A stretch of DNA of 64,000 nt from an uncultured Bacteroidales bacterium (GCA_963750735.1 CAVVRY010000013.1:1856-65855), one strand, 5' to 3'. Counted from the stretch's first letter, positions 9,312-57,995 are shown. Notes: generated by a model from the letters alone, not told the origin. Made by a program: numbers and translations.

Positions 9312-9369
9312 GATTATATACTATAGTTTATTTTGGCAGATAGTTGGAACCAACTCATCTTTTTGAGAT

Positions 9370-11850: not shown

Positions 11851-11861
11851 GAAATATTCTA

Positions 11862-12724
11862 ATGTGTGAAAAAATAAAATCGGGCAGGAGTATATATTTT
11901 GCATTGATATTAGCTATGCTTCTATTCGGCTGTCTGGAAAAGAAAAAGGAAGAAAGAACAAATCGTTTTAAAGAATCCAGACAGCTTGTTTTGGAGGAGA
12001 TTCAGGAGATTTTTGATTCTTCCTTTGTAAAAGGTTCAATATTGGTGTTTGATCCCCAACGCAATATATATTATTCCAATGATTTCAAATGGGCAAACCA
12101 GGGGAAACTTCCAGCTTCTACGTTTAAAATTCCGAATTCAATAATAGCCCTGGAAACTGGTATTATTGATAGTGACAGTAGTATAATTAAGTGGGATGGC
12201 GAAAAAAGGAATTTGGCTATTTGGGAACAGAATCTTAGCTTTCATGACGCATTTCAGTTTTCATGTGTTCCATGTTACCAGGAAATTGCAAGGGAAATAG
12301 GTGAAAACAGGATGCGTAAATACCTTGCAAATTGGAATATGGTGAAATGGTTTTTGACTCAAATAGCATTGATTGGTTCTGGTTGGTTGGAGAGTCAGCA
12401 ATATCACAATTCCAACAAATTGATTTTCTTGAAAGATTTTACAATGGTGAGCTTCCAATATCTGACAGAACAGAGACAATAATGAAAAGGATGATGCTCA
12501 TCGAGAAAACAGATGATTATGCTTTATCAGGCAAAACAGGTTGGTCGTATTATAAGGAGATTGATAATGGCTGGTTTGTAGGCTATGTTGCCAAAAACAA
12601 AGAGATATATTACTTTGCCACGAATATTGAACCTCTAGAGAGTTTGAACATGGATTTATTTCCTGACCTGAGGAAGGAAATAACAATGGAAGCATTAAGA
12701 AGACTGGAAATAATAGAATATTAA
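11862..12724 (+). pseudogene. Frameshifted class D beta-lactamase paralog
   Basis: A 1-nt deletion (GCGAAATTGG in copy A versus GCAAATTGG) near 12328 splits the gene into ORFs 11847-12482 and 12332-12724. STFK is still present in the first part and KTG in the second. Confidence 0.85.
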
Positions 12725-12848: not shown

Positions 12849-15153
12849 ATGAGATCATTGACAATTATCTTAATCATCGTAATATTTACTGCATGTAGTT
12901 ACCATGAAGAAACATCTAACCTGAAGCTCTGGTACAACCAGCCGGCAGAGGCCTGGACAGATGCCTTCCAGTTGGCAATGGTCGTTTGGGTGCTATGGTT
13001 CACGGAGGAGTCGCAAAGGAATACATCCAGTTCAATGAAGAAACTCTATGGAAAGGCGGTCCACATGACTATGCCCATAAGGGGGCAGTGAACTACCTGA
13101 GCGAGATAAGACAACTTCTATTTGACGGCAAACAAAACGAGGCACACAAGCTGGCAATGGAAAAGTTTATGAGTACTCCATTAACCCAGATGGAATACCA
13201 ACCCTTTGGTGATCTCTATTTTGAATTTCCCGGGCATGAAGACTACAGTAATTATTATCGTGAGCTCGATATTGAGAAAGCTGTTTGTAAAACATCTTAC
13301 TCAGTGAATGATATTTTATACACCCGTGAAGTAATTGCCAGTTATCCAAGCAGGTAATTGCTGTTCATATTGAGTCTAGTAAGGCGAAATCTCTTTCATT
13401 CAATGTTTATATGGATGCCAGCCATGAAATAAAATCTCTGTCTACAGAAGGGAATACTCAGATTTTGCAGGTGGCTGTGAAGGATGGTGAATTGAGGGGA
13501 ACTGCCGGTATAAAAGTTGAATCAGATGGGACGATTTCAAATGAAAATGATAAAATTGTTATAAAAAATGCCAGATCAGCAACCATATTGTTGAGTGCCA
13601 GCACGAATTTTATTTCATACAAGGATATTAGCAAAGATCCACTGGCCAGCATGCAAAATGTATTGAATGCTTCGGAAGGACTCTCATTTAAAGAGATAAA
13701 AGAAAATCATATAGCTGATTATCAGTCTCTTTTTAACAGATTTTCACTTGACCTGGGAACAAATGGAAGGGATAGTCTTCCAACTGACCAGAGACTTGAG
13801 AAGTTTATTGAATCACCAGAAGATCCATCCCTGATTAGTCTGTATACTCAATTTGGGCGTTACCTGCTGATATCCTCCAGTCGTCCAGGTACTCAACCGG
13901 CAAACTTGCAGGGAATCTGGAACAAGGAACTTGATCCGCCATGGGGAAGTAAGTATACTACCAATATCAATGCAGAAATGAATTACTGGCCGGCTGAGTT
14001 AACCAATCTCTCAGAATGCCATGAACCACTTTTTGGCTTAATAGAGGATTGCTCAGAGACAGGAAAAAATGTTGCAAAGGAACATTATGGAGCTGATGGA
14101 TGGATTTTACATCACAACACAGACCTATGGCGAGGGACGGCTCCAATAAACCATTCAAATCACGGAATGTGGCTTGGTGGAAGTGGTTGGATGTCAAGTC
14201 ATTTGTGGGAGCATTATCTATTTACTCAGGATCTTACATTTTTAGAAAAAAGGGCCTACCCCATTATGAAAAGTGCTGCTACTTTTTATTCGCAAATACT
14301 TATTGAAGATCCTGATACAGGCTGGTTGATAAGCACCCCTTCCAATTCACCGGAGATTGGGGGAATGGTGGCAGGTCCGACTATGGATCATCAGATTATC
14401 CGTTCTCTTTTTAAATCATGTGTAGAAGCCTCAGAAATATTGGGTGTTGATCCTGAATTCAGAAGCCAGTTAAAGACTCTGATTCCAAAAATTGCTCCAA
14501 ATCAAATTGGAAAATACGGACAGTTACAGGAATGGCTTCAGGATATTGATGATCCGGAAGTAAAACACCGCCATGTTTCCCATTTGTGGGGTGTACACCC
14601 TGGTAAGGATATTACCTGGGAAAATAATCCGAAATTGATGGAAGCTGCCAAACAATCACTCCTGTTTCGGGGAGATAATGGCACAGGATGGAGCCTCTCC
14701 TGGAAAATTAACTTCTGGGCTCGTTTTCTGGATGGAGATCATGCCTATGAGTTAATTAAATTACTTTTCAGACCGGTGTCTTCAACAAATACAAAGTACA
14801 TGGGTGGAGGAGGATCCTATGCAAACCTTTTCGATGCGCATCCCCCATTCCAGATTGATGGAAATTTTGGCGCTCCTGCAGGTATTGTGGAGATGTTGAT
14901 ACAGTCACATCAATCTGTTATTGATATATTGCCAGCTTTGCCCTCTGCATTGCCGAATGGTAAAATCTCTGGTGTTTGTGCCCGTGGAGGCTTTGAACTA
15001 ACATTTAGTTGGGAAAATGGGACTCTTACTAGTTTAAAAGTTCTTTCAAAGGCTGGTAAACCTTGCGTTTTGCGTTACAAAGGAGAGATTATAGACTTTG
15101 AAACAATGTCCGGACAAAGCTATATTCTGGATGAGGAAATAAAGAGTCTTTAA
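12849..15153 (+). pseudogene. Frameshifted GH95 paralog
   Basis: Three ORF pieces in three different frames (12849-13091, 12986-13357, 13411-15153). 1-nt deletions relative to copy A lie near 12963 and 13350. Confidence 0.85.
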
Positions 15154-36988: not shown

Positions 36989-37265
36989 TTGAGATATTTT
37001 TATTAAGATTATTATTAATTGTTGCTAACTAATTTATAGTATAAATTTCTGTCCTAAAATTAACATTTATTGCCCAATGTGGCATGTTAGTGCTAGTTTT
37101 TCACCATAAGAGCTATCATTTATATTTTTACAAAGATCATCAAAAGTATCAATTAATATTTTGTAAAAGAGCGGAAATATATGGGTAAATAATCCATACA
37201 ATGAATTGAATTTGGTATCTTGTAAGGTAAAATATTTACTCATCCAAATTCAAATTTTTAGGGAA

Positions 37266-37673
37266 ATGAACTTAACGAATCAGAATTTGAAATCCCGAGA
37301 ATGGACTGAACGCATTTTTCTGGCAATAATCTTCGCAGGCTTTGGCAGCCTGATTATGATTGTATTTAGTCCCTGGCATCCAATACTGGGCAAGGTGCAG
37401 GATTATTTGGGCAGAATATCAATTGTTGCCCTTTTACTTTTAATATTTTATTTTTTACGGGCCAGGAATCAATTTAAGAACTATCAACAGATAATATGGG
37501 GGCTATTTATTATGGCCCTTGCAGTTTCACTTGACTGGGTTTTCGGATTATACCTGATTGATTCTCTCGGAGTTGATGGAAACACACATTCAGGTTTTGC
37601 ACTTTTAAAGCTGAATGAATGTATTCGTTGTTCTCGCTGTTATCATTGTTTTTACAAAATTATCAGGAGATGA
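37266..37673 (+). CDS. Membrane protein; possibly the N-terminal part of the following CPBP protease
   Basis: Four hydrophobic helices. It overlaps the next ORF by 59 nt in a different frame. Confidence 0.45.
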   Translation: MNLTNQNLKSREWTERIFLAIIFAGFGSLIMIVFSPWHPILGKVQDYLGRISIVALLLLIFYFLRARNQFKNYQQIIWGLFIMALAVSLDWVFGLYLIDSLGVDGNTHSGFALLKLNECIRCSRCYHCFYKIIRR

Positions 37674-38139
37674 TCTTGGCTCTCTATATATTCAGAAGGG
37701 AAACCTGAAACTTGGACTGATTATAGGCCTGGGTACTTTTTTTCTGGCAGCTGCAGGATCAATACCTATGGCTGCCTCATTATTTAAGGGTCAGGAACTG
37801 GAATTTTCCAGAATTTTGCCATGGATCCCCTGGATATTGATTTTTGTTCTCGCCAATGCAACCCTCGAGGAAACACTTTTTAGAGGTCTGTTTTTAAAGA
37901 AGCTTGAGCCGGTTTATGGCAAGTTTGTTTCCAATCTGTTAATTGCAATAATTTTCACGGGTCTACACTTATTTGCAAGTTACACGTCTGATCAATATTT
38001 ATTTATAGCTATTTTATTTCCATTGGCCTTACTTTGGGGATTTATTATACAGAAAACAAATAGTTTGTTTGCTTCCATTTTGTTTCATGCAGGTATGGAT
38101 ATCCCGATAATTCTGGGAGTATTCTCAAACCTGTCATAA
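37615..38139 (+). CDS. CPBP (CAAX) family intramembrane metalloprotease
   Basis: 174 aa. Motifs EETLFRG, FTGLHL and FHAGMD, which match the EExxxR, FxxxH and HxxxD pattern. Confidence 0.75.
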   Translation: MNVFVVLAVIIVFTKLSGDDLGSLYIQKGNLKLGLIIGLGTFFLAAAGSIPMAASLFKGQELEFSRILPWIPWILIFVLANATLEETLFRGLFLKKLEPVYGKFVSNLLIAIIFTGLHLFASYTSDQYLFIAILFPLALLWGFIIQKTNSLFASILFHAGMDIPIILGVFSNLS

Positions 38140-38209: not shown

Positions 38210-38884
38210 ATGAAGAATGCCGGAAAAGTTCATACAATTGTGCTGATTGCGATACTGTTGATTTGTAATCATTCATCATATTCGCAGGAAAATTCTGAAG
38301 AATTCTTAAGAATTGTCCGACATGGAAATATTGAGAGAGTGGATAGCTGCATAAAAGCAGGATTTGATGTGAATTTAATAGATAATGACAGGTATACGCC
38401 TCTCATGTTTGCAATATGGGGAAACCATTTTGAAATTGTCAAACTCCTTATTGAACAGGGTGCCGATATAAATATGCAAACAGAAAAAGGTGGCAATGCC
38501 ATGACTGTTGCCGGGGGAATGGGAAACCTGGAAATATGCACGTACCTCCTAGGTAAGGGCGGTGATATTGAGGCAGTTGATAATGAAGGGAAAACAGTGT
38601 TAATGAATGCTGTGTACAATATGAAAAATGAGGTAATACCTTATTTTATTCAGCAGGGTGCAAATGTAAATGCTAAAGAACACAATGGATACTCTGCCCT
38701 CATGTTTGCTACTATATTAAATACTCCTGAAAGTGTAAAATTATTGATTAAGGCTGGAGCAAATGTAAACGAACTTTCCAATGAAGGAGAAACAGCCCTG
38801 CAAAGGGCGAAAAAAATACAAGATGCCAAGTTAGGTGATATGAGCGATGTAATTAAACTCCTTGAAAAGTCTGGTGCAAATTAA
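38210..38884 (+). CDS. Secreted ankyrin-repeat protein
   Basis: 224 aa. Signal peptide followed by about five ANK repeats (..TPLMFA..GH.EIVKLLIEQGADIN..). Confidence 0.8.
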   Translation: MKNAGKVHTIVLIAILLICNHSSYSQENSEEFLRIVRHGNIERVDSCIKAGFDVNLIDNDRYTPLMFAIWGNHFEIVKLLIEQGADINMQTEKGGNAMTVAGGMGNLEICTYLLGKGGDIEAVDNEGKTVLMNAVYNMKNEVIPYFIQQGANVNAKEHNGYSALMFATILNTPESVKLLIKAGANVNELSNEGETALQRAKKIQDAKLGDMSDVIKLLEKSGAN

Positions 38885-39850: not shown

Positions 39851-39890
39851 TCAGAATTCTTTAAAATGATTAATTTTGTTAATATTTAAA

Positions 39891-39912
39891 GCCCGTTTTA
39901 CGGGCTTTTTTC
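39891..39912 (+). terminator. Rho-independent terminator
   Basis: GCCCG-TTTTA-CGGGC followed by TTTTTTC, about 40 nt after the stop at 39850. Confidence 0.7.
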
Positions 39913-40051: not shown

Positions 40052-42837
40052 ATGTACAAACAAACCTTTCTTATTTTTTTTTCAATTGTACTTCTAATCG
40101 TACTTACAAAATGTAGTGGCACAAAACCTGCAGTTACCGGGGATCCATCCGGTAGAACTCCCAGTGCCGAACGAGAATTTCGTGCAGCATGGGTAGCGAC
40201 AGTAGCCAATATAAACTGGCCCAGCAAACCAGGTATTCCTGTCGAGGAGCAGAAAAAAGAGGCAGTTGTATTATTGGACCTCCTGGCTGATAATAATTAC
40301 AATGCAGTTATTTTCCAGGTGAGACCCCATTGTGATGCTTTATATAGTAGTGAACTGGAACCCTGGTCTTATTATTTAACAGGCGAACAGGGGAAAGCAC
40401 CAGAGCCATTTTATGATCCATTAGAATTCTGGATTGAAGAGGCACATAACCGGGGCCTTGAATTGCATGCCTGGTTGAATCCTTACCGTGCTCACCATGT
40501 TGCTGGTGGAGATGTTACGGATAAATCTATTGTAAAACTGAAGCCTGAACTGGTGGTGGAACTGGAAAGGGGCTATTGGTGGCTCGATCCAAGTAAAAAA
40601 GAAACCCAGGATCATTCCTACAATGTTGTTATGGACCTTGTGCAACGATATGATTTAGATGGAATCCATTTTGATGATTATTTTTACCCCTACCCCGATT
40701 ACAATAATTTCAAAGATTTTCCTGATGACGAAAGCTGGAAATCTTATCAGGATGAAGGCGGTAAACTTTCAAGAGGTGATTGGAGGAGGGAAAGTGTTAA
40801 TACTTTTATAGAACGACTTTATAAGGGGATAAAAGAAGAAAAACCTCATGTTAAATTCGGTTTGAGCCCGTTTGGATTCTGGCGACCCTATTATCCGCCT
40901 TCCATTACAGTTGGTTTCGACCAACACAATGAGCTCTATGCTGACGCAAAACTCTGGTTAAACAAAGGTTGGATTGATTACTATACACCACAACTTTACT
41001 GGCCTATTAACCGAATATCCTTGAGTTTTCCAGTTTTACTTGGCTGGTGGGAAGGAGAAAATAAGAAAGGAAGGCATTTATGGCCTGGAATGAGTGTGGG
41101 ACGGTTGCAAGGAGAACAGGGCATAGATGAAACACTTAACCAGATAATGATTACCAGAGGCATGCTGCCTGAAAGTCCAGGTGCTGTACATTGGAGTATA
41201 GGGCCTCTGGTCTCCTCCCCTTCTCTGGTCCAGGCTATTGCAGATGGACCCTATAAAAGGCAGGCACTTGTGCCTCCGTCTCCCTGGTTGGATAAAAAAG
41301 CTCCTGTAGCACCAAAGGTTGAGATTTCATGGGATAAAGACAGTGTAGATGTTTCCTGGGAGCATCTTGAAAAAAATGATGTTTCACGTTGGGTAGTCTA
41401 TTACAAACATGGAAACCGATGGGATCACCAGATCTTAGGAAGTGGATATACATCAGAAAAGGTTCCCGGATTCATTTTAAATGAGAGTTTTTTAAACCAG
41501 GCAGACATTGATAGTGTAAAAAATATTGAGGACATCCTTATTCCAATAAAAAAGGTTGCTGTTACTGCCGTTGACCGATTTGGAAACGAATCTGAACTAA
41601 CTGAGAAGGCTATTTCAGATGTTTCGTTTGAGTTTGCTCCACCATTGGAGGATATAATAAATGAATATGCTTTGAGTAAAAAGGAACCAGCTTTTAAAAC
41701 CCCGCTTGTAAAACCAGGGATTGATGTACTTGTAGAGGATCATCTTGATCTTATTCGGGGCAAGAAAGTAGGGTTGATCACAAACCCATCAGCTGTTGGA
41801 GCTGACCTCAGAAGTAGTATTGATATCCTTGCCAGTACTCCCGGAGTAAACCTTGTTGCCTTATTTGGAGCTGAGCATGGAGTCAGGGGAGCCAAACAGG
41901 GAAAAATCATACAGGAAGGTGAGTTGGACCCTGCAACAGGCATACCGGTGTATAGTATGTATGGTGACTCATATGCACCTAATAAGGAATGGCTGGAGGA
42001 TCTGGATGTCTTGATTTTTGACATTCAGGGTGTTGGTTCAGCCTGGTATACATTTAAATATTCCATGTCATTTGCCATGGAAGCCTGCTCTGAGGTGGGA
42101 ATACCTTTCATTGTTCTAGACAGGCCAAATCCTTTAGGAGGGCGTATTGTTGAAGGTCCGAATCTGGATCTGGGCCGGATTTTCCGACATACACTTCCTT
42201 TGCGACATGGGATGACCTACGGAGAGCTTGCTACCATGTGGAATGAGACAGAAAATTATGGAACCGACCTGACAGTGATAAAAATGAAAGGCTGGCAACG
42301 GTATATGACCTGGGATAAAACCGGCTTGTTCTGGATTATGCCCTCACCCAATATGGGTACCCTTGAAACTGCGATTGTGTATCCCGGGCAATGTCTTTTT
42401 GAAAGAATGAATATGTCGGAAGGAAGAGGAACAACCAAACCTTTTCTTATTAACCGGGGCACCCTGGGTAGATGCGGAAAAAGCGGCGACTGACTTAAAT
42501 AACAGGGGAATTGAAGGGGCTGTTTTCAGACCTGTTTATTTTATACCTAAGAACGCAAATCCTGGCTCTAATCCAAGGGGCAAACCCTGGAATAAAATGA
42601 GTGGTGGAGTTGAAATATATGTTGACCGATTATGATAGCTATAGATCGGTAGAAGGGGCACTTCATATTATAGATGCTTATCGAAAAACCAATCCTGATT
42701 CCCTTGTCTGGTCACCTCCTGCCCCATTGGAACAGTTGGAGGAACCTGAAATGACCGTTGAAAAGCTGGTTGAAAAATGTCAGGAGGACATTCAGGAGTT
42801 TATTGAAATTCGTAAGAAATACCTAATATATCGATGA
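40052..42837 (+). CDS. Lipoprotein fusion: GHL10 (DUF187, YngK-like) domain + DUF1343/NamZ-like exo-beta-N-acetylmuramidase domain; frame broken twice near the 3' end
   Basis: Lipobox LTKCS. N-terminal REFRAAWVATVANINWPS..FQVRP..DALY..PWS..LTG..HAWLNPY (GHL10). C-terminal KKVGLITNPSAVGADL..LFGAEHGVRG..DIQGVGSAWYTF (DUF1343). The continuation GAPWVDAEKAATDLNNRGIEGAVFRPVYF.. lies in a second frame (about 42457-42630). ..TDYDSYRSVEGALHIIDAY.. lies in a third frame (42601-42837). Confidence 0.75.
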
Positions 42838-44480
42838 AAACCAAACTCATTATTTCGTTTGTTCTTATTCTACTTTGCTTTATTTCGGGATGTAAAACTA
42901 CTGAAGTAATATCTCCTGCCCTGCCAGCAGAAATAATATCTCCAGTGGAGCCAACAGAGGTTACATCTCCTGAGCAGTCTTTAGAAGTTGAAATAAAACC
43001 TACCAGCGAATTGCGTGGTGTTCAGGTAAACCCTGATTTATGGCTAGATGGTGATTCAGAAAAAATGAAAGATAATATTGAAGCCATAGTAACCAAAGCT
43101 GCTGGTGAAAATTATAATCTTATTTTATTTATTGTAAGAGAAGATGCTGAGGTTTATTATTCATCGAACATTGAAAAATGGTCAAAGAAATTCACTTCGG
43201 TATCCGCTGGATTTGATCCACTTGAATTTGCCATCGAAACAGCGCACAATCAAGGATTAAAAATAATGGCAGGTATTGATCTTCTGGGTTTAGGTGATGG
43301 AGGAGCTGAGGTAGAGAAACTTAAAATAAATAGTGGTATTTTGCTAAATCCAGCTGATCCTGCTGGTAAATCATATCTAAAAAAAATAATCATTGAATTA
43401 ACAGAAAAATATGATATTGATGGTTTTAGTTTTGATCTTTCAGGGTATAAGCCGGATTCTATGTTATCAGATAGTTATTCTCTGCGAAGCTTTCATCAGG
43501 ACAGTCTGCAGAATTCCATTTCCATGGATGATTGGTCAAATGAGAGGCTAACCGACCTTGTTGAGGATATTGCTGTGGAAGTTATGTTGACTAAACCTTA
43601 CCTGATTCATTCCGCTTCATTAACAACTGAACAAAGTGAAAGTGCAATTAATTGGTTGGAAAATGGAATAGTAGATTTTATCCAGTTCAATTTAAATGCG
43701 GATGACAGTTCACCAATTGAATCGTTTAAGGATTTATGGGATGCAAAATTTGATGGTACGGAATTATCAGAAAAAGTTTTCCCCAATCTATTGGTGAGCA
43801 ATCAGAGTATTCAAGATTCCGGATTTAAAGAGTGGATTGAGATATTCCTAAGCAAAGGAGGAAGAGGTTTGGTGACTTCCGGTAATTATTTTCATGAGTT
43901 TACAGATGAACTTGATTTTCCTCAGGATATAAAAACTGTAACACCTGAGCAGGTATTTGAACTGAATACTTCCGCTTTTTTTGAAGATAACCCGGGTGGT
44001 CAACCAGTGATTTATAATAATAGAGTTCACAAAACCGATCAGGAAGGAAACATTGGTTTTATTGGACCATTGCAAGATTCAATATTACTTAATATTTTAG
44101 ATAAATCAATTGAACTCTACACAGGCGACTGGTCCATTCCATATAAATTCACGGTGAAAACGGATAATATTGTTGAACGAAGCTCACCATGGGTGGAATT
44201 CCGAAGAATGCCAGCTAAAAATACCGATATGCAGGATTATCATGTATTGTTTAAAACTGATTTTCCAGCAGAAGCCCAAATTAACGGAGAGTCAGTTAAA
44301 GTATATAAAACAGGGATTTTTTTCAGTAAAATCAGCCTGAAGGAGGGTGCGAACCGGATAAGAGCCAGTGTTGTGACGCCAGATTCAAAATCGGTATTTT
44401 ATGAACGTGAATTTATTTATGAAGAAGTTGACAAAACAAAAAAGGCTTTTCCTTTATGGATTGACCAAAAGATCTGTTGA
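42834..44480 (+). CDS. Lipoprotein with a divergent GHL10 (DUF187)-like domain; probably the N-terminal part of a fusion with the following amidase
   Basis: ATGA overlap with the upstream stop. Lipobox ISGCK. GHL10-like LRGVQV....YNLILFIVRED.EVYY.S......GFDPLEFAIETAHNQGLKIMA. The ORF ends inside an A-run (CCAAAAGATC) where the next ORF's frame takes over. Confidence 0.7.
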   Translation: MKTKLIISFVLILLCFISGCKTTEVISPALPAEIISPVEPTEVTSPEQSLEVEIKPTSELRGVQVNPDLWLDGDSEKMKDNIEAIVTKAAGENYNLILFIVREDAEVYYSSNIEKWSKKFTSVSAGFDPLEFAIETAHNQGLKIMAGIDLLGLGDGGAEVEKLKINSGILLNPADPAGKSYLKKIIIELTEKYDIDGFSFDLSGYKPDSMLSDSYSLRSFHQDSLQNSISMDDWSNERLTDLVEDIAVEVMLTKPYLIHSASLTTEQSESAINWLENGIVDFIQFNLNADDSSPIESFKDLWDAKFDGTELSEKVFPNLLVSNQSIQDSGFKEWIEIFLSKGGRGLVTSGNYFHEFTDELDFPQDIKTVTPEQVFELNTSAFFEDNPGGQPVIYNNRVHKTDQEGNIGFIGPLQDSILLNILDKSIELYTGDWSIPYKFTVKTDNIVERSSPWVEFRRMPAKNTDMQDYHVLFKTDFPAEAQINGESVKVYKTGIFFSKISLKEGANRIRASVVTPDSKSVFYEREFIYEEVDKTKKAFPLWIDQKIC

Positions 44481-45897
44481 ACCATCAGTTAATCTGGAAT
44501 TACTTCCTGAGGATAATGTTTTTGTTCAATTTAAAGGGTCGCTGTCTCAGAATGGTATAATTGAAATACTTCCAGGAAAACTCATTTTTGAGTGTGCACG
44601 AGAGGATTTTGCAGATTACAGTCTTTACCAGGCTGAACTGCCTTTGCGAATGCTTGAACCCAATAATGAATATAAAATTACCCTGAAATTAATAGCCTCT
44701 AACAGCAAAAATGAAAATTCTATTTTTGAATGGCCGCTGAATAGTTCAATTAGGGTATTTGAACGGGACCAATTCCCACTTCTTAAAGTTGTAAAAAAAG
44801 ATTCAAGATTAACTTACAATACCGGCCCTACACGACTGGGAGGTCCCATCCGGTCTGAATTGCAACCGGGAGTCATTCTTCAGGCAAGTGGTAAAATCGG
44901 TAATAATTACAGGATAAGACTCGATAAGGTTGAAGAGGGTATTATACATCAGAGTAGTGTTCAGGTATTGGCAGATGAGCAGATTCAAACACCCTATTTT
45001 ATTACGAATATGTCCTGTGGCCCTTCTAGGGGAGGTGATATTGTTAGTATACCCTATTTAGAATCAATACCTTATATGGTATACCCTGATCCTGATCAAA
45101 ACAGGCTTGTTGTTACTCTTTATGGTGCAAAAACCAGTAGTACCTGGATTACGCACCGGAAGGGGCGCAAAATTGTTGATAAACTCACCTGGAAGCAAAC
45201 AACTCCTGAAACCTATGAAGTATATGTAAAACTGAAGAGCTCAAAAATATGGGGCTATAGCATCAGGCAGGTTGGTAAAAGCCTTCGGCTGTTTATCAAG
45301 TACCCACCTGAATACAATGTTGATAATACCAAGCCTTTATCAGGTCTGAAAATCGCCATTGAAGCCGGACACGGAGGTGAAAGTACCGGAGCAATAGGCT
45401 TGTCAGGTTTGGTTGAGAAAGACATAAACCTCGATTTGGCTTTAAAATTAGGTGAGCTTTGTAAATCAATGGGTGCGGAGGTTTTTCAGGTACGGGATAC
45501 GGATAAAAGCATGTCCCTATTAGAAAAACGTAGCAATGCAATATCCTCTGGAGCCGATTTGCTGGTAAGTATTCATGCAAATGCAGCAGGTATAAGCCAG
45601 GGATATCTTCGCGTACCAGGTACAAGCACCTATTACAATAATCCATTTTGGGCACCGCTTGCAGAGAATATCTATGACCGCCTATTGGAACTAAAACTGG
45701 CTGAATTTGGTGTTATTGGTTCATTTAATTATACAGTAATACGTGTATCGCAGATGCCATCGATTCTGGTGGAGCAGGCTTTTTTGACCCATGCTGAAGA
45801 CGAAGAAAAAATGGCAGATCCAGAGTTTCGGGAGGATATGGCTCATAAAATTTATGAAGGGATAATTGACTATCTCAAATTCATGAAAATAAAATAA
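44401..45897 (+). CDS. N-acetylmuramoyl-L-alanine amidase (Amidase_3) C-terminal domain protein
   Basis: Amidase_3 block LKIAIEAGHGGESTGAIG..EKDINLDLALKL......DLLVSIHANA...FLTHAEDE. The first 23 codons of the track ORF overlap the previous ORF. The sequence reads through as ..PLWIDQ(K/R)SVEPSVNLE.. if one A is removed near 44466. Confidence 0.8.
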   Translation: MNVNLFMKKLTKQKRLFLYGLTKRSVEPSVNLELLPEDNVFVQFKGSLSQNGIIEILPGKLIFECAREDFADYSLYQAELPLRMLEPNNEYKITLKLIASNSKNENSIFEWPLNSSIRVFERDQFPLLKVVKKDSRLTYNTGPTRLGGPIRSELQPGVILQASGKIGNNYRIRLDKVEEGIIHQSSVQVLADEQIQTPYFITNMSCGPSRGGDIVSIPYLESIPYMVYPDPDQNRLVVTLYGAKTSSTWITHRKGRKIVDKLTWKQTTPETYEVYVKLKSSKIWGYSIRQVGKSLRLFIKYPPEYNVDNTKPLSGLKIAIEAGHGGESTGAIGLSGLVEKDINLDLALKLGELCKSMGAEVFQVRDTDKSMSLLEKRSNAISSGADLLVSIHANAAGISQGYLRVPGTSTYYNNPFWAPLAENIYDRLLELKLAEFGVIGSFNYTVIRVSQMPSILVEQAFLTHAEDEEKMADPEFREDMAHKIYEGIIDYLKFMKIK

Positions 45898-50314: not shown

Positions 50315-51523
50315 ATGAGAAAAATAGACAGACGAATTGTCATTATTGCTGCTTTAATCTTTATTGTAGCCATGGCATATGGGTTAATGAAGTATTTAAT
50401 CTCCTTGAAGGAGGAGCCTCCTATGCGGCCGGCGGTAGAGGCAAAAAGATTTGTAAAAACAGAAACTGTGGCATACAGCTCAATTTATACACCTGTATCC
50501 GAACCTGGTCGACTTTCATCCATTGCTGAGGTGGATATTATTGCCGAAGCATCGGGAAAAATACAATCAGGTAATGTTCCACTTAAAAAATCTTCCAGTT
50601 TCTCAAAGGGAGATAAATTATTTGTGGTGTACCCCGATGAAGCAGCACTGGCATTAAAGGCTCGTAAAAGTCAGTACTTAAATATTCTTGCAAATATAAT
50701 TCCTGATATCCGACTCGATTTTCCCGACCGAGAATCAGATTATATGGAATTCTTTTCTTCTATTAGTTCAGATAAACCATTGCCGAAATTTCCTGAAATA
50801 ATGGACGAGAAATTGCGCATATTTCTGACAACGAGAAATGTTCTTGGCGAGTATTACAGCATTCAGAAAGACGAGCTCCAGTTAAGACGACACACTGTAT
50901 ATGCTCCTTTTGATGGAACTTATACCGACGTTTACCTTGAAGTAGGTGCTTATACCAATACAGGTGGACGAGTCGCCCATGCAATTCGGACCAATGATCT
51001 TGAACTGGAAGTTCCATTGCAAATATTCGATGCTAAGTGGGTAAAAATTGGAGATAATGTAACTGCCAGGTCTGAAACAAGAGACCTGGAATGGACTGGA
51101 AAGGTTATAAGAAAAAGTGAGTTTCTGGATGATAACAGTCAAAGGCAGTCTGTTTTTGTCAGATTAAACAACACAGGCCCCAAAAATACGGTTCTTAGTG
51201 GCGAATATCTTTCTACAGTATTCCCGGGGCATCCGGTTGAAGATGTTATGGAGATACCGCGAAACGCTGTTTTTAATACCAATGAAGTATTCGTTGTAGT
51301 GGATGGAAGACTGGAGAATAGAACCATAAATATTATAAAAACAAACGAAAGAACACTTATATTTAATGGATTAGAAGTTGGCGAGATAATAGTTGTTCAA
51401 CCACTTATTAATGTTCTGGAGGGTACACTTGTCGAAGTAGAGGGCTCTGGTCCAAAACAGAACCAGGAAATCGTTGATGCCCCTCCAAAGCAAGATGATA
51501 ATGCCAAACCAGAAAAGGAATAA
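50315..51523 (+). CDS. RND efflux periplasmic adaptor (membrane fusion protein)
   Basis: 402 aa. N-terminal anchor. A beta-barrel/lipoyl-like pattern. Located immediately upstream (2-nt gap) of the RND pump. Confidence 0.75.
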   Translation: MRKIDRRIVIIAALIFIVAMAYGLMKYLISLKEEPPMRPAVEAKRFVKTETVAYSSIYTPVSEPGRLSSIAEVDIIAEASGKIQSGNVPLKKSSSFSKGDKLFVVYPDEAALALKARKSQYLNILANIIPDIRLDFPDRESDYMEFFSSISSDKPLPKFPEIMDEKLRIFLTTRNVLGEYYSIQKDELQLRRHTVYAPFDGTYTDVYLEVGAYTNTGGRVAHAIRTNDLELEVPLQIFDAKWVKIGDNVTARSETRDLEWTGKVIRKSEFLDDNSQRQSVFVRLNNTGPKNTVLSGEYLSTVFPGHPVEDVMEIPRNAVFNTNEVFVVVDGRLENRTINIIKTNERTLIFNGLEVGEIIVVQPLINVLEGTLVEVEGSGPKQNQEIVDAPPKQDDNAKPEKE

Positions 51524-51525
51524 GC

Positions 51526-54500
51526 ATGAGAAAAATAGTTGAAAAATTTGTTGAGTATCCGATTTATGCCAACCTGATTATTTTAGTAGTGATCCTTGCA
51601 GGGACACTTAGCTACATCAATATGAAGAAGGCATTCTTCCCCGAGACAGAAAGCCGGATGATCACTGTTTCCGTTTTATACCCTGGCGCTTCACCTGTGG
51701 AGATGGAAGAGGGTGTAACATCCAGGATTGAGGAGGCGATTAGAGGTTTAATAGGTATCAAAGAGATAAATTCTACTTCTGTTGAAAACCGGTCTTCAGT
51801 TTCTATTGAAACCACTGGAGAATACCCTATTGATGAAATCCTTATAGAAGTTAAAAATGCGGTAGATGGTATATCTTCATTGCCCTCTGCTGCAGAGCGT
51901 CCAATTGTATCAAAGCAGCGGTCCCGTGCTATGGCGCTGTTTATGGAACTTACATCGGATGAGAATTCCAATGTCGATTTAATGACATTAAAAAACTATG
52001 CCCAACGAATTGAGGAAGACTTTTTTAATTCAGGGGTAATGAGTCAAATTAGTATTTCTGGCTTTCCCACACCAGAGATTTCCGTTGAGGTAAAAGAGGA
52101 AGTCCTTTTGCGTCATAATTTAAAATTCGATGATATAGCCAGGGCAATTCAAATGAACAATCGGGATGTTTCCGGAGGTCAGATTAAATCAGACGTTGAG
52201 GAACTTTTGATTCGGCTTCGCTCAAGAAGTGCGGATCCAAACAAGATTGGTGAAATTATCATACGAGGGGAAGAAGATGGAAGCTATCTTAGGGTGCGCG
52301 ATGTGGCAGAAGTAAAGAAGAAATTTGCCGAAACATCAAATAAATCCTGGATTAATGGAAAGCCTGGTGTATCCATTCGAGTTGAGAAACTTCCCGAGGA
52401 AGACCTTGAAGCGATTACAGAATATGCCAGAGAATATATGGAGGCATTTAATAAAAAAGATAATGGGGTTCAATTGATAATGTCAAGGGCCTTTCTCGAT
52501 ATCCTGCATAGCCGTTTAAAACTTTTGACAGACAATGGGATGCTAGGAATTACTCTGATAATTATTTCCTTGTCACTTTTTCTAAGTGTACGGTTATCCT
52601 TATGGGTTGCCTGGGGGATTCCATTTAGTTTCCTGGCCATGTTTATATTTGCCAACTATTTGGGCGTCACTATTAATATCATGTCTTTGTTCGGGATGAT
52701 CCTTGTTATTGGGATACTGGTGGATGACGGAATTGTTATTGCTGAGAATATTTATGTTCATTTTGAAAGGGGAAAAACTCCTATGCAGGCCGCAGTTGAC
52801 GGAACCATGGAGGTTATGCCTGCAGTTTTAACTTCTGTAACAACAACTATTGTTGCATTTTCACCCTTGTTATTCCTGGGTGGCACCAGAATGGAAATGA
52901 TGTTTGACATGGCGATAGTGGTTATTCTGAGTCTTTTCTTTTCTCTTTTTGAAGCCTTTCTTGTACTACCAGCACACCTTAGCAACCAACGGGTTCTAAG
53001 CCAAAAGAGTCTGGATGCCAGGCACAAAGGGATTAAGAAATATTTTGAGGGCCTTTTAGTTTGGCTGAGGGATAGAATCTACAAGCATTCACTCATATGG
53101 CTAATTAGGTGGCGCCATGCTGTTATAGGAATTCCAATTGCCTTATTGCTTATTACAGCAGGTTTGTTTTTTGGAGGACATATAAAAAGTACCTTCTTTC
53201 CGATGGTTGATTTCGATCAATTTACAGTTAACGTGGCATTTACTCCTGGTGATGGTGAGAAACAAACAGAAGAGTTCCTATTCAGGTTCTCAGACTCGAT
53301 TTGGGCTGTAAACGAGGATTTGAAGGAAGAACTCGGTGTGGATATTGATATTATTGAAAGGGTTAATGTGAACATTGGTAGATCCTTTAGTGGTCAGGAA
53401 TCAGGTGCTCATGCCGGAAGTATTAATGTTTATCCAGTTGACCTGGAAGGATATCCCTTAACCGGATTTGCCATAGCAAATATGGTACGAAAAAAAATCG
53501 GACCCGTACCTGAAGCAAGAAAATATACTGTTGGTGGACGAAACCGCTGGGGCGCTCCGGTTTCTATAGGTCTAATGTCAAAAAATCTACTTGAACTAGA
53601 GGAAGCTAAAGATTATATGATGAGTCGCCTGGATGAACTTCCTGCCTTAAAAGATATAAACGAAAATATCGCTTTGGGAAAACAGGAAGTGCGTTTGAAA
53701 TTAAAACCAAGGGCATATTTTCTAGGGCTTGATGAAAGTACAATTGCCAACCAGGTCAGACAGGGATTCTATGGAGGCCAGGCACAAAGACTTCAGGAAG
53801 GCCGGGATGAACTCCGGGTTTGGGTTCGTTATCCTCAATCGGATAGGCTAACGCTGGGCCAGATGGAAAAAATGAAGATTAAGACAAATTCTGGAGAATT
53901 TCCACTGAGTGAATTGGCTGAATACGATCTCGTAAGAGGTCCTGTAGCCATTCGCAGATATAATGGCAACCGTGAAATCCGTGTGGAAGCTGAGACAGTT
54001 GATCCTTTTGCATCAGTACCTGAAATTCTGGAGCAGATAAGCGTCGAAATTATGCCAGATCTATTGGCTCAGTATTCAGGGATAAGCTATACTTATCAAG
54101 GCCAGCAAAAGGCTAGTAATGAAGCTCTGCAAAAAGTAACCCGTTACTTTGCCATTGCTTTTGTGGTAATTATTTTATTGTTGATTTTGCACTTTAAGAG
54201 TGTTAATCAAACACTGATCATTATGATGATGATTCCATTGTCTATGCTTGGTGTCTTCTGGGGCCATGGTATACATGGGAAACCCATTTCACTCATGAGC
54301 CTATGGGGAATCGTGGCCTTAACCGGGGTTATTATTAATGATGCAATTGTCTTCCTTGCAAAATACGATGGATTATTATTGGAAGGAAAAAAGGTTAAGG
54401 ATGCTGTTGTAGAGGCCGGAATGGTCAGGCTCAGACCAATACTCTTAACAACCATCACTACAACCATAGGAATGTTTCCTATTATCCTTGAGAAAAGTGT

Positions 54501-54759
54501 TCAGGCACAGTTCGTTATACCAATGGCAATAAGCCTGGCATATGGTGTGGCTGTTGGAACCGTTTTCATCCTTATATTCTTCCCTATTCTGATAATGCTA
54601 TTGAATGATGTCAGGGTATATGCCAGATACCTCTGGACAGGAGTCAGACCTGAAAAGGAAGAGGTTGAAGTTGCGATTATTCAACAGAAGCGTAAACTTA
54701 AATACGAGGAAGGCTCTAAAGAAACGGTTGATAAGGTTATAGTTAATCCACAGATTTAA
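51526..54759 (+). CDS. RND family efflux permease (AcrB/CzcA superfamily)
   Basis: 1077 aa. 12-TM two-fold repeat architecture with large periplasmic loops. The VDDGIVIAENI motif. Confidence 0.9.
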   Translation: MRKIVEKFVEYPIYANLIILVVILAGTLSYINMKKAFFPETESRMITVSVLYPGASPVEMEEGVTSRIEEAIRGLIGIKEINSTSVENRSSVSIETTGEYPIDEILIEVKNAVDGISSLPSAAERPIVSKQRSRAMALFMELTSDENSNVDLMTLKNYAQRIEEDFFNSGVMSQISISGFPTPEISVEVKEEVLLRHNLKFDDIARAIQMNNRDVSGGQIKSDVEELLIRLRSRSADPNKIGEIIIRGEEDGSYLRVRDVAEVKKKFAETSNKSWINGKPGVSIRVEKLPEEDLEAITEYAREYMEAFNKKDNGVQLIMSRAFLDILHSRLKLLTDNGMLGITLIIISLSLFLSVRLSLWVAWGIPFSFLAMFIFANYLGVTINIMSLFGMILVIGILVDDGIVIAENIYVHFERGKTPMQAAVDGTMEVMPAVLTSVTTTIVAFSPLLFLGGTRMEMMFDMAIVVILSLFFSLFEAFLVLPAHLSNQRVLSQKSLDARHKGIKKYFEGLLVWLRDRIYKHSLIWLIRWRHAVIGIPIALLLITAGLFFGGHIKSTFFPMVDFDQFTVNVAFTPGDGEKQTEEFLFRFSDSIWAVNEDLKEELGVDIDIIERVNVNIGRSFSGQESGAHAGSINVYPVDLEGYPLTGFAIANMVRKKIGPVPEARKYTVGGRNRWGAPVSIGLMSKNLLELEEAKDYMMSRLDELPALKDINENIALGKQEVRLKLKPRAYFLGLDESTIANQVRQGFYGGQAQRLQEGRDELRVWVRYPQSDRLTLGQMEKMKIKTNSGEFPLSELAEYDLVRGPVAIRRYNGNREIRVEAETVDPFASVPEILEQISVEIMPDLLAQYSGISYTYQGQQKASNEALQKVTRYFAIAFVVIILLLILHFKSVNQTLIIMMMIPLSMLGVFWGHGIHGKPISLMSLWGIVALTGVIINDAIVFLAKYDGLLLEGKKVKDAVVEAGMVRLRPILLTTITTTIGMFPIILEKSVQAQFVIPMAISLAYGVAVGTVFILIFFPILIMLLNDVRVYARYLWTGVRPEKEEVEVAIIQQKRKLKYEEGSKETVDKVIVNPQI

Positions 54760-54781
54760 TGAATTTTAGAAATATTTCACA

Positions 54782-56092
54782 ATGGGAAAATGGATACCGG
54801 TAAATAGATTTACTTCATTTTTAATTTTACTTTTTGTCATTGGTTCTAATGCTCGGGCGCAGGAAGAGGACTTATCACTTGCTCTAGCCCTTGAAAAAGC
54901 TCTTGACAACAACTATGGGATTATTATTTCCAGATCGGAGACTGAGATATCCACTGTAAATAATGCCTGGGGTACAGCTGGCAGGTATCCATCAATTGAT
55001 TTTAGTGGAGGTTCATACAATAATTATGATATAAATAATACTGCTAATTTTTCAACCAACAGGCTTTCTGCAGGCCTCGGTTTGAGATGGACGATTTTTG
55101 ACGGATTCCGTGTTAAGGTAACAAAAGATAAGCTTAGCCAGCTTGAGGTCCTGGCAAAAGGCCGTTTGGCAGTAATTGTTGAAAGTACCATTATGGATGT
55201 GGTAATGGCCTACTACCTGGTGTTGCTTCAACAGGAAGAACTGGTGGTATTAGAAGATGTAATGAAATTATCAGAGGATAGGTATAATTATGAACAATCA
55301 CGCTACGAGATTGGGAGTACAGCCAGTTATAACGTGCTTCAGGCCAAAAACGTGTACCTGAATGATAAAACCTTGTTTATGAACCAGGAAATGGTGCTCA
55401 GAAACTCTGTTAGAAACTTTAACTTTCTAATAGGAGAAGAACCTACCATGACCTGGAATTTTATTGAGGAATTTAAACCTGGAGATGCTAAGTACAAGCT
55501 TGGAGATTTGCTCGATAAGATGATGGCCAGTAATCAGACCTTACAAAATCAATATGCCAACCTGGTTCTTCAGCAAAATGAAATAAAACTTAAAAAGAGT
55601 GATCTTTATCCTTCTCTGGACCTTTCAGCCGGTATTACTGATAGCTGGGCATATATTAACAGAGATAACTCTGATCCGACAAGAGGCAATGCATTAAACT
55701 CCTATGGAAATTTATTACTTTCTTACCCAATTTACACAGGAGGAACCCGAAAGAGAGCCATAGAAGTTGCCCGGATAAATGAGGAAATTGCGGATGTAGA
55801 GATTGACCAGATGCAGCATAGCCTTACAAACCAGCTCATGAATACCTATGATTTCCATGAGGTGAGGGTAGCCCTGTTAGGGGTTGCTGAGGAAAGCCTG
55901 GAGGCTGCTGAGCTAAATATGCAAATTGCTGGTGAAAAGTTTCGTAGTGGTGCTATCAATTCATTTAACTATAGAGATATACAAGTTATTTATCTGACAT
56001 CTGCACTTAGGCGATTAGAAGCCATTTACGATGTAATTGATTCCCGAACAAACCTTACACGTCTTATTGGCGGCTTTATTACTGAGAATTAG
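54782..56092 (+). CDS. TolC-family outer membrane efflux protein
   Basis: 436 aa with signal peptide. Two-repeat helical/beta pattern. N-terminal LSLALALEKALDNNYGI is typical of OEP family members. Confidence 0.8.
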   Translation: MGKWIPVNRFTSFLILLFVIGSNARAQEEDLSLALALEKALDNNYGIIISRSETEISTVNNAWGTAGRYPSIDFSGGSYNNYDINNTANFSTNRLSAGLGLRWTIFDGFRVKVTKDKLSQLEVLAKGRLAVIVESTIMDVVMAYYLVLLQQEELVVLEDVMKLSEDRYNYEQSRYEIGSTASYNVLQAKNVYLNDKTLFMNQEMVLRNSVRNFNFLIGEEPTMTWNFIEEFKPGDAKYKLGDLLDKMMASNQTLQNQYANLVLQQNEIKLKKSDLYPSLDLSAGITDSWAYINRDNSDPTRGNALNSYGNLLLSYPIYTGGTRKRAIEVARINEEIADVEIDQMQHSLTNQLMNTYDFHEVRVALLGVAEESLEAAELNMQIAGEKFRSGAINSFNYRDIQVIYLTSALRRLEAIYDVIDSRTNLTRLIGGFITEN

Positions 56093-56780: not shown

Positions 56781-57995
56781 ATGAAAAAGCTTTTATTCAT
56801 ACTTATGATTCTGGTTTTGGGGAGCTCGGGGTTCTCACAATTTTTAATAAGCGATTGCTGCACCTGCTTTTCTTATCAATATGGGAGTAATTCAGGCTAC
56901 TTCAGGGACTCAACCATTCATTATATAATTGATCGTAGCAATGGGAATATGCTGGAAAGCTCATTTACAAGATATATTTACAGCAATGGCAAACTAGCAG
57001 AAACGATCGGATATCGATTTGATCATGATTTTTACCGTAGAGAAGAATCATACATGCAGATAAAGAAGTTTAATGCCTATAAAAATGATACGGAAAGATT
57101 AAATTATCGCTGGGATAAGAATTTCCAGAGCTGGAAAGAAAGTAGCAAGGGTGTAAATTACTATACGGAAGCCCAAAAACTCTCCCATACCGTGGATTTT
57201 AAGTTTAATGAGTATTCCAGAGCCTGGGAGAACAATTTTATGAATGAGACATTTTTGGAAAGGAATGGAGCCATCAGAACAAATGCTTCTAAAAAATGGG
57301 ATGCGCCTTCTGGCAAGTGGATTGTGAAATCAAGAAATACATGTAAAGATGAGGTGGGCATACTTCAAAGAATATGCATATCGACAGAATGGAAGGAAGA
57401 TGTAGGTAGCTGGGTGCAATCCCAAAAAACAATCAATCAGTTTAATTCCGACATGACCCTTGCAGAGACCTTCCTGTATACCTGGGATGAAGAAAATGAT
57501 AGCTGGGGTAATTTACGGCATTTTGAGTATGAATATGATGCTTCCGGTAGAAAAAAAGCCTGGTTTAGCTGGGTTTATGATGAAGAAACCGGAGAAAAAG
57601 TAAGCAGAGGGTACCAACAATATATTTATGACAAGAACGGAAATAATTCGGAGGTATTAAGCCTCTCCTGGGATAAAGTTTCCAAACAGTGGAAGGTTTA
57701 CCAGAAGCAGGTTCATTATTGGTCGAAAAATGGTGAAGGAAACAGCGGGGATGTTTTATTTGAATCACTCAGTGTTTATCCCAATCCTTTTAGCGATCAG
57801 GCCCGCCTTAGCCTTTCCGGCATTACCAACATTAAAAAGGTTGAACTCAGGGATATATACAGCAAACTGGTAAAGAATTATGATTTTGACAATGAGGAGG
57901 AAATAATTATAACGCGAAGTGGATTAAAACCAGGGGTATATTTTATAAAAGTTTATGCGGACAAGGTATTCTCAACAAGGGTAGTTATTCATTAA
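56781..57995 (+). CDS. Secreted protein with T9SS type A C-terminal sorting domain
   Basis: 404 aa with signal peptide. C-terminal LSVYPNPFSDQARLSL...GVYFIKVYADKVFSTRVVIH is typical of a Por secretion tail. Confidence 0.8.
   Translation: MKKLLFILMILVLGSSGFSQFLISDCCTCFSYQYGSNSGYFRDSTIHYIIDRSNGNMLESSFTRYIYSNGKLAETIGYRFDHDFYRREESYMQIKKFNAYKNDTERLNYRWDKNFQSWKESSKGVNYYTEAQKLSHTVDFKFNEYSRAWENNFMNETFLERNGAIRTNASKKWDAPSGKWIVKSRNTCKDEVGILQRICISTEWKEDVGSWVQSQKTINQFNSDMTLAETFLYTWDEENDSWGNLRHFEYEYDASGRKKAWFSWVYDEETGEKVSRGYQQYIYDKNGNNSEVLSLSWDKVSKQWKVYQKQVHYWSKNGEGNSGDVLFESLSVYPNPFSDQARLSLSGITNIKKVELRDIYSKLVKNYDFDNEEEIIITRSGLKPGVYFIKVYADKVFSTRVVIH

Follow-up and report, generated by a model that had tools for sequence, protein, structure and literature searches.

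We analyzed a 64,000-nucleotide stretch of DNA from an uncultured Bacteroidales bacterium (GCA_963750735.1 CAVVRY010000013.1:1856-65855, referred to here as the window), in which two adjacent genes at positions 40052-45897 encode lipoproteins assembled from peptidoglycan-degrading enzyme families. Gene 1 joins a GHL10 domain to a complete NamZ (DUF1343) domain, and gene 2 combines a degenerate GHL10-like barrel with a series of beta domains and a C-terminal Amidase_3 domain. A previous annotation of this DNA (the sequence-only reading) had described the pair as two independent GHL10 fusions in one operon, and Pfam calls support its GHL10, NamZ_N/NamZ_C and Amidase_3 assignments. The features of the locus are collected in Table 1.

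Domain architecture and reading frames of the two genes

The gene 1 product is a lipoprotein whose lipobox, LTKC, carries an atypical Lys at position -1. Its GHL10 domain matches PF02638 over residues 42-338 (4e-56, 190.8 bits against a Pfam gathering cut-off of 27.9 bits, profile positions 1-284 of 311), and its closest solved structure is Clostridioides difficile Cwp19 (5OQ2, 3e-72). The Cwp19 structures (5OQ2/5OQ3) define a putative active site formed by W36, Q77, W127, R132, D195, D196, Y197, S250, Q295, Y297, G328, F367 and S368 (PMC5765458). Gene 1 retains every one of the 13 positions, F367 being replaced by Trp, and 11 of the 13 do not vary among 44 homologs; D208-D209-Y210 and R146 are likewise invariant in 44 sequences. 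Strands at residues 422-520 of an AlphaFold2 (AF2) model, with a local predicted local distance difference test score (pLDDT) of ~75-90, delimit the middle domain. This model is of moderate quality overall (pLDDT 67), probably because its alignment held close relatives only, and was used solely to identify the all-beta domain. Stand-alone GHL10 proteins of cultured Bacteroidota (Rufibacter, Joostella, Sinomicrobium) match gene 1 from residue 1 to ~520.

Both halves of NamZ follow at full length, NamZ_N at residues 573-771 (PF07075, 4e-69, 232.5 bits) and NamZ_C at residues 775-926 (PF20732, 1e-33, 117.4 bits), and both are recovered only when two frameshifts are bridged. Among solved structures the domain matches 4K05 (BfNamZ1) at 8e-69 and 4JJA (BfNamZ2) at 3e-39. 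The motifs E608-H609-G610 and E790-R792-G793 (EGRG) do not vary across 44 sequences. E608 is matched by the EHG motif in both structures, and R792 by an Arg in 4JJA, where 4K05 has Val. E608 and R792 are candidate counterparts of the putative catalytic Glu92 and the active-site Arg279 of B. subtilis NamZ (BsNamZ; PMC8054146). NCBIfam models matched gene 1 with zero families, and the JGI label for its family is "YbbC (DUF1343)/lipoprotein YddW".

Gene 2 begins with a signal peptide that ends in the lipobox ISGC, in which C20 is at least 90% conserved across 47 sequences. An AF2 model of good overall confidence (pLDDT 84.8) resolves the protein into a barrel (residues 60-350), an all-beta region (374-830) and the amidase (839-1018). 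The Amidase_3 match (119 bits) is continuous over profile positions 1-173, and the fold matches AmiC2 and CwlV with template modeling (TM) scores of 0.84-0.85 (Foldseek). H846, E861, H914 and E980, which we take to be the zinc ligands (His, Glu, His) and the catalytic Glu, are at least 90% conserved in the same number of sequences. Within the all-beta region, residues 433-540 form the most conserved block of the family, as judged from invariant columns. E. coli AmiC (4BIN), comprising an AMIN and a catalytic domain, aligned to the C-terminal part of gene 2 over 359 columns (Foldseek), and the AMIN match in one ortholog (L002) is weak. Only ~12 residues (917-928, a low-confidence loop) separate H914 from the next strand, and the NCBIfam models for AmiA/B/C align in two pieces, the best stretch ending at residues 916-918. 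The model thus indicates that gene 2 has no room for the autoinhibitory helix of AmiA/B/C; since that regulatory helix is lacking, the amidase is likely to be constitutively active, and activation by LytM factors is not expected.

The N-terminal barrel of gene 2 is a divergent GHL10-like domain, as the sequence-only reading had recognized, but the copy is degenerate. Its PF02638 match is partial (1.5e-17, 64.1 bits, best over profile positions 129-256). The AF2 model retains eight beta/alpha units, most blocks having pLDDT >85 with dips to ~57-65, and the best Foldseek match is again Cwp19 (5OQ2, E 6.5e-14, TM 0.65). The gene 1 ortholog of the closest relative (L001) also detects the barrel region by tblastn (2.5e-14). 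In Cwp19 numbering the active site shows the changes Q77I, W127G, R132G, D196L and Y197S, of which the fourth removes the proposed catalytic Asp. The other eight positions are unalignable, and strands 5-8 no longer fit the family profile. The barrel has also lost the motifs of its own closest subfamily (FDRIRYPG, SAATWG, VPMIYWD, NLLxLW). These substitutions indicate that the domain is almost certainly a decayed, non-catalytic barrel.

That closest subfamily consists of stand-alone GHL10-Amidase_3 proteins (for example P0139, P0143, P0157 and P0162) of 1017-1092 residues, which resemble gene 2 at 39-43% identity over 94-99% of the query. Unlike gene 2, they keep a complete barrel with all four motifs, and none has an upstream GHL10-NamZ gene in the four contexts checked (4/4). 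They likely represent the ancestral form of gene 2. Sequence comparison places the GHL10 domains of genes 1 and 2 in different subfamilies, so the two fusions are independent events; the double fusion claimed earlier stands to this extent, but the gene 2 copy does not supply a second glycosidase.

Neither gene is intact as assembled. The sequence-only reading had taken gene 1 as open to 42837, but the assembled frame from 40052 halts at 42493 after 813 residues (open reading frame (ORF) listing), and that reading missed two further 1-nt insertions: three-frame translation continues in the next frame from ~42455, shifts again at ~42624 and ends at the TGA of the ATGA overlap. In a DNA alignment with L001, gene 1 is exactly 2 bases longer, with unmatched single-base insertions at ~42446 and ~42618. 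Translational coupling of the two genes through ATGA, proposed earlier, is real as a sequence feature but holds only in the corrected frame of gene 1. The predicted frameshift in the gene 2 A-run near 44466 is borne out. As assembled, this gene is split into ORFs 42834-44480 and 44401-45897 (ORF listing), and bridging the +1 frameshift restores a 1020-residue protein, collinear with intact orthologs, that runs into Amidase_3. The corrected frames of both genes otherwise contain zero in-frame stops, and all relatives listed or aligned have intact open frames.

The three module frameshifts are most likely assembly errors, because other genes of the window are split as well (a penicillin-binding protein (PBP) transpeptidase, a GH95 and an Rce1-like gene, for at least 6-7 breaks in 64 kb). 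Programmed frameshifting was considered and rejected, as the three sites share no common motif and every relative examined has a single open frame. Breaks seem concentrated in genes of the cell wall, with three of the four in the L001-syntenic region located in the module and the PBP split in addition, but this was not read as meaningful, since unrelated genes are split too.

Table 1. Features of the two-gene locus and its upstream boundary, in window coordinates
Feature	Position	Strand	Basis or remark
Terminator-like hairpin, 9-bp stem and T-run, closing the upstream DUF1801 gene	39888..39908	+	consensus scan only
Gene 1, GHL10-Ig-NamZ lipoprotein (Ig, immunoglobulin)	40052..42837	+	927 aa after deleting two 1-nt insertions
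Signal peptide and lipobox of gene 1 (…VLTKC)	40052..40114	+	Cys21 invariant in 44 sequences
GHL10 TIM (triosephosphate isomerase) barrel, aa 32-396, canonical HFDDYFYP type, predicted catalytic	40145..41239	+	Pfam PF02638, Cwp19 match
All-beta, probably Ig-like domain between GHL10 and NamZ, aa ~418-520	41303..41611	+	AF2 strands 422-520
NamZ (GH171/DUF1343) domain, predicted exo-beta-N-acetylmuramidase, aa 573-926	41768..42831	+	NamZ_N and NamZ_C
Frameshift 1, gene 1, one surplus base (…ATTAACCGGGGCA…)	42446..42455	+	relatives' consensus KPFLLTGAPW
Frameshift 2, gene 1, one surplus base (…TATGTTGACC…)	42618..42624	+	three-frame translation and L001 DNA alignment
ATGA start/stop overlap, gene 1/gene 2	42834..42837	+	same overlap in ~30 of 52 related loci
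Gene 2, lipoprotein with degenerate GHL10 barrel, beta domains, AMIN-like domain and Amidase_3	42834..45897	+	1020 aa after deleting one 1-nt insertion
Degenerate GHL10-like (beta/alpha)8 barrel, aa 60-350, probably non-catalytic	43011..43883	+	AF2, Foldseek, Pfam
All-beta region, aa 374-830, including AMIN-like domain before the amidase	43953..45324	+	AF2 model, invariant columns
Frameshift 3, gene 2, surplus A in CAAAAG, ~44469	44465..44470	+	L001 ortholog reads WIDSNSVKPS
Amidase_3, predicted N-acetylmuramoyl-L-alanine amidase, aa 840-1011	45352..45867	+	Pfam PF01520, 3e-34

Distribution and genomic context

Relatives of gene 1 fall into more than 120 clusters at 67-83% identity, with lengths of 914-980 residues barring three shorter entries. 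In a scan of one genome per species, the full GHL10-NamZ fusion was found in at least 52 species, nearly all of them uncultured Bacteroidales or metagenome-assembled genomes (MAGs) labeled Rikenellaceae. Four cultured Bacteroidota are among the matches, and in these only the GHL10 and Ig part is covered (residues 1 to ~520-595). Clustering at 50% identity leaves a single representative that spans the entire gene 1 fusion, and the GHL10-NamZ fusion is therefore one tight clade. In 48 of 53 loci the fusion gene is immediately followed by a member of the gene 2 family, while the flanking genes vary among lineages, which identifies the pair as a conserved unit. The domain matches exceed chance by far, and the gene pair is found in dozens of species.

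The two genes are conserved to different degrees. Identity to the L001 orthologs, for the same genome pair, is 81-83% for gene 1 and 42-64% for gene 2, and within gene 2 identity to the nearest orthologs falls from ~78% in the amidase to 58% in the beta region and ~40% in the barrel. Amidase proteins that have a GHL10-NamZ partner are usually 596-760 residues long and lack the barrel, are sometimes 816-920 residues, and exceed 1000 residues only twice; in aligned homologs of gene 2 the N-terminal part is between 113 and 499 residues long. This gradation points to a barrel under relaxed constraint that was subsequently lost.

In about 20 of the 53 species the amidase gene is followed by murA, in convergent orientation, and then murB (L013, L014, L017, L021, L030-L033, L043, L046, L048, L051, L057, L059, L060 and L067; ~9.5-12 kb per locus), an arrangement absent from this window. 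In L017 and L043, murA lies within ~60 nt of the end of the fusion gene and the amidase gene was not found. The products of murA and murB make UDP-N-acetylmuramic acid (UDP-MurNAc). This adjacency is suggestive only, because murA is convergent and the arrangement is present in only ~20 of 53 loci.

The neighbors within the window are unrelated to the module (DUF1801, SnoaL, flavodoxin-like and metallo-beta-lactamase fold proteins, an ABC (ATP-binding cassette) exporter and a resistance-nodulation-division (RND) pump), and the earlier observation that no MurNAc kinase, etherase or transporter genes adjoin the pair holds among them. Genes for MurT, AmpG, MurQ and kinases were found neither in the window nor recurrently in related loci. 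SusC/SusD genes, the mark of a polysaccharide utilization locus (PUL), are likewise absent from the window neighbors and from the recurrent neighbors of the 53 loci. Upstream, the AT-rich 143-nt spacer after the terminator-like hairpin probably holds the module promoter. A consensus scan between hairpin and gene 1 found no Bacteroidetes TAnnTTTG motif, and sigma-70-like matches before gene 1 were no more frequent than in shuffled sequence.

Several variants of the architecture were seen among relatives. A singleton on a 12.4-kb Logan contig (P0171) encodes 1355 residues in which a gene-1-type active GHL10 and Ig part is fused in frame to a gene-2-type body of remnant barrel, beta domains and Amidase_3, without NamZ; this single contig suggests either a true deletion-fusion or an assembly artifact. 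A more distant GHL10-NamZ fusion of 895 residues occurs in a Saprospiraceae MAG (P0172/P0320, NRB62034.1), where the first ~70 NamZ_N positions, including the region of the EHG catalytic Glu, no longer match, and its sequence may represent a second case of one catalytic domain decaying inside a fusion. Two tandem NamZ units occur in the large proteins P0177, P0179, P0225, P0271 and P0296; P0179, P0225 and P0271 add SLH, LysM or FIVAR wall-binding domains, P0177 adds a bacterial surface Ig-like domain, and P0296 shows zero further domains. In the GWF2_41_9 lineage (L002-L004) a BNR_2 sialidase-like gene at 8849-9976 (+) ends 25 nt upstream of the fusion gene on the same strand. A full-length fusion at 64% identity, followed by an unrelated 581-aa ORF, is present in a MAG labeled candidate division KSB1 (L045, JAZBPW010000077.1) and reflects either horizontal transfer or a binning error.

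Elsewhere in the window (all on the plus strand), one or two frameshifts divide the PBP transpeptidase domain at 11356-12724 between a pair of overlapping ORFs, with profile positions 37-127 in 11847-12482 and 147-279 in 12332-12724, and ORF 11356-11850 may be its N-terminus. Two GH95 (alpha-L-fucosidase family) paralogs are present, one intact (7005-9311, 768 aa) and one broken (12986-15153), the latter with a portion of its N-terminal GH65N_2 domain (profile positions 21-139) in ORF 12986-13357 and its catalytic part in 13411-15153. The Rce1-like (CPBP) membrane protease gene at 37206-38139 has a frameshift at ~37615-37673, and its L001 ortholog is one 289-aa protein. The gene at 38210-38884 encodes 224 residues consisting almost wholly of ankyrin repeats, an uncommon composition in bacteria, with a hydrophobic, signal-peptide-like N-terminus and an L001 ortholog at 66% identity. 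An RND efflux operon (50315-56092) encodes a membrane-fusion protein, an AcrB-type pump and an outer-membrane factor, and is followed by a gene (56781-57995) for a protein with a type IX secretion C-terminal sorting domain, which fits a Bacteroidota origin.

Relation to known cell wall enzymes

Every enzyme family in the module already has a known cell-wall function. The sequence-only reading had regarded the biochemical function of GHL10 as not established, but members have been tested: lytic transglycosylase activity on peptidoglycan was demonstrated for the GHL10 domain of Cwp19 in 2018 (PMC6016235), and E. coli DigH/YddW is described as a hydrolase specific for the denuded glycans left by division amidases (PMC12288456, citing Yakhnina and Bernhardt 2020). 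The Rosetta-stone argument that GHL10 acts on peptidoglycan glycan strands fits all of our findings as well as these papers, and because GHL10 already has tested members it confirms existing knowledge.

DigH, a divisome-localized glycosyl hydrolase, is a close parallel to gene 1. The digH product of MG1655 is a full-length PF02638 protein (6e-136) and a lipoprotein, and it shares 12 of the 13 active-site positions with Cwp19 (S368 as Arg) and 11 with gene 1. Its substrate is reported to be the peptide-free glycan made by amidases (PMC12288456), as would be the case for the module proposed here. Unlike gene 1, it is a single-domain protein of 439 residues with neither an exo-glycosidase fusion nor a coupled amidase gene, so that gene 1 goes beyond it by an Ig-like domain and a complete NamZ. 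Cwp19, the nearest solved structure for the gene 1 domain and the top fold match of the gene 2 barrel, differs from the module in that it belongs to the S-layer of a Gram-positive bacterium, where three CWB2 repeats anchor it, and in having a role in autolysis and no NamZ or amidase partner.

The NamZ/GH171 enzymes (B. subtilis NamZ, T. forsythia NamZ1/NamZ2, B. fragilis 4K05/4JJA) share with gene 1 both Pfam halves and, putatively, the EHG Glu and the GRG Arg, the latter position being Val in 4K05. The characterized members are stand-alone soluble proteins of ~400 residues with signal peptides of the Sec/signal peptidase I type, whereas the gene 1 NamZ is the C-terminal domain of a 927-residue lipoprotein. 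These enzymes depend on an amidase, since their substrates are limited to peptide-free glycans and do not include intact sacculi, and the T. forsythia salvage pathway is stated to require an amidase that is so far unidentified (10.1101/2021.12.02.470905). AmiC-type amidases (E. coli AmiC 4BIN, Nostoc AmiC2 5EMI) resemble gene 2 in having an AMIN-like beta domain before Amidase_3 and conserved metal ligands. Gene 2 differs from them as a lipoprotein with ~800 extra N-terminal residues, including the apparently dead barrel, whose gene is coupled to a glycosidase gene, and it also lacks the regulatory helix of AmiA/B/C.

A proposed role in dismantling peptidoglycan glycan strands

We consider it probable that the two translationally coupled genes form a module that dismantles peptidoglycan glycan strands in the periplasm. 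In the proposed mechanism, the zinc amidase of gene 2, probably always active because the autoinhibitory helix known from E. coli division amidases is missing from it, would strip stem peptides from MurNAc to leave peptide-free glycan, with its beta and AMIN-like domains, and possibly the dead barrel, tethering it to the wall or to bare glycan. The gene 1 GHL10 domain, which retains the full Cwp19/DigH active site, would then cleave the bare glycan internally and create new chain ends, and NamZ would shorten the product from its non-reducing ends. We infer this order because NamZ needs peptide-free glycan and DigH prefers denuded glycan. Characterized NamZ enzymes remove single residues successively from denuded oligosaccharides (PMC13627109).

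The cellular location and the purpose of the module are also matters of inference. An acidic motif after the lipobox Cys is a surface-export signal of lipoproteins. No such motif was seen after the Cys of either protein; a surface location, one of the two options named earlier, is therefore unsupported, and both lipoproteins would face the periplasm. The broader suggestion that the locus serves cell-wall turnover or scavenging is compatible with all findings, and of the two we favor turnover of the organism's own wall, or clearance of denuded glycan as for DigH, because of the AMIN-like domain, the murA/murB neighbors in many species and the absence of PUL and import genes.

A number of points weigh against this interpretation. 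The catalytic activities of all domains in genes 1 and 2 are predicted ones. The periplasmic location has as its one basis the absence of the acidic motif. Uptake and catabolic genes were not found near the module in the loci surveyed. The convergent murA is not co-transcribed with the module, and its adjacency may reflect shared ancestry only. The gene 1 NamZ is nearer to BfNamZ1 overall, yet keeps the Arg motif of BfNamZ2; BfNamZ1 clusters with the disaccharide-releasing TfNamZ1. According to the authors of the NamZ study, the subtype is not predictable from sequence (10.1101/2021.12.02.470905). Accounts of the bond cut by GHL10 differ, as Cwp19 is reported to be a lytic transglycosylase (PMC6016235) and DigH is described as a "glucosaminidase or muramidase", and activity on starch has been reported for one member of GHL10, DogH (PMC9967864). 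Finally, the frameshifts might be genuine, and the organism would then have a dead module.

Four alternatives bear on this assessment. The same biochemistry might serve to forage on the peptidoglycan of dead neighbors, for carbon and nitrogen or for MurNAc, as has been proposed for T. forsythia NamZ1/NamZ2. We regard this as unlikely, though it is the most serious of the alternatives. Characterized NamZ enzymes do serve recycling or salvage (PMC8054146; 10.1101/2021.12.02.470905), and prior peptide removal has been proposed as a means of telling foreign from own wall (10.1101/2021.12.02.470905). Record titles of the carrier MAGs point to sediment, biofilm, groundwater and digester samples, and one lineage has the sialidase-like gene immediately upstream of the fusion. 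Foraging is nevertheless difficult to reconcile with the lack of SusC/SusD, MurT, AmpG, MurQ and kinase genes in and around these loci, with the missing surface-export motif in both lipoproteins, and with an AMIN-like domain placed before the amidase as in septal AmiC. The ~20 carrier species with murA and murB beside the module are, moreover, not MurNAc auxotrophs.

It is less probable still that both genes are pseudogenes in this genome, with three real frameshifts and no protein made. Such a state would account for three single-base insertions inside 5.8 kb, for the fact that, of four frameshifts along the 22 kb syntenic with L001, three lie in the module, and for the split PBP gene of the same window. 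The corrected frames, however, are free of in-frame stops and retain ~81% (gene 1) and 42-64% (gene 2) identity to the L001 orthologs. The unrelated GH95 and Rce1-like genes are split as well, and the overall rate of ~1 break per 10 kb, with two of the three module sites in short homopolymers, is the pattern of assembly indels. The concentration of three of four breaks in 29% of the syntenic sequence is not significant (p ~0.08, our own estimate).

That the gene 2 barrel is still an active glycosidase, giving the operon two glycan-cutting GHL10 enzymes, appears very improbable. Its above-threshold Pfam score, its complete and confidently predicted (beta/alpha)8 fold and its best match to Cwp19 speak for activity, and the GHL10 catalytic residues are proposed, not proven (PMC5765458). 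Against it stand the five active-site substitutions, the poor fit of strands 5-8, the loss of its own subfamily's motifs, the lowest identity of the protein's three parts, and the shortening or absence of the domain in most operon-linked orthologs, whole proteins being reduced to ~600 residues. Least probable of all, and hardly credible, is that the gene 1 GHL10 targets another glycan (capsule, poly-N-acetylglucosamine (PNAG) or alpha-glucan) with an incidental NamZ fusion, since the release of maltose from starch by DogH (PMC9967864) and a closest non-GHL10 fold in the PNAG-acting C-terminal domain of PgaB (PMC5765458; Foldseek) are opposed by the peptidoglycan specificity of both the NamZ partner and the coupled amidase, by the far greater similarity of this domain to Cwp19 (3e-72) and its active site in common with DigH, and by an arrangement kept in at least 48 loci.

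Within the preferred interpretation of a periplasmic glycan-dismantling module, a more specific version is possible, which we advance tentatively and consider doubtful. The fusion and the amidase coupling might form a self-contained three-step machine in which the product of the endo-cut is passed directly to the exo-enzyme, with the dead barrel as a pseudo-enzyme for binding and handing off bare glycan; with an active GHL10 supplied by the neighboring gene, the barrel would no longer have been needed and would have disappeared step by step. If this holds, the bond cut by GHL10 can be predicted from the architecture: cleavage by a lytic transglycosylase or muramidase would supply a disaccharide-releasing NamZ, and cleavage of the glucosaminidase type a MurNAc-releasing one.

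The module reveals neither a new enzyme family nor a function for an orphan domain. What remains new is its architecture, an endo-acting GHL10 fused to an exo-acting NamZ and coupled to an amidase with a decaying pseudo-GHL10, and no paper describing the GHL10-NamZ fusion was found in the literature searched. The steps are known separately from E. coli (amidases, then DigH), B. subtilis (AmiE, NagZ, NamZ) and T. forsythia (an unknown amidase, then NamZ1/2); here amidase, GHL10 glycan-cutter and exo-muramidase are placed in two coupled genes. Gene 2 illustrates how a catalytic barrel may decay, perhaps into a binding module, and then be lost. The module is a natural construct for deciding the bond specificity of GHL10, and gene 2 suggests what kind of enzyme could be the "so far unidentified" amidase that generates substrates for NamZ in Bacteroidota.

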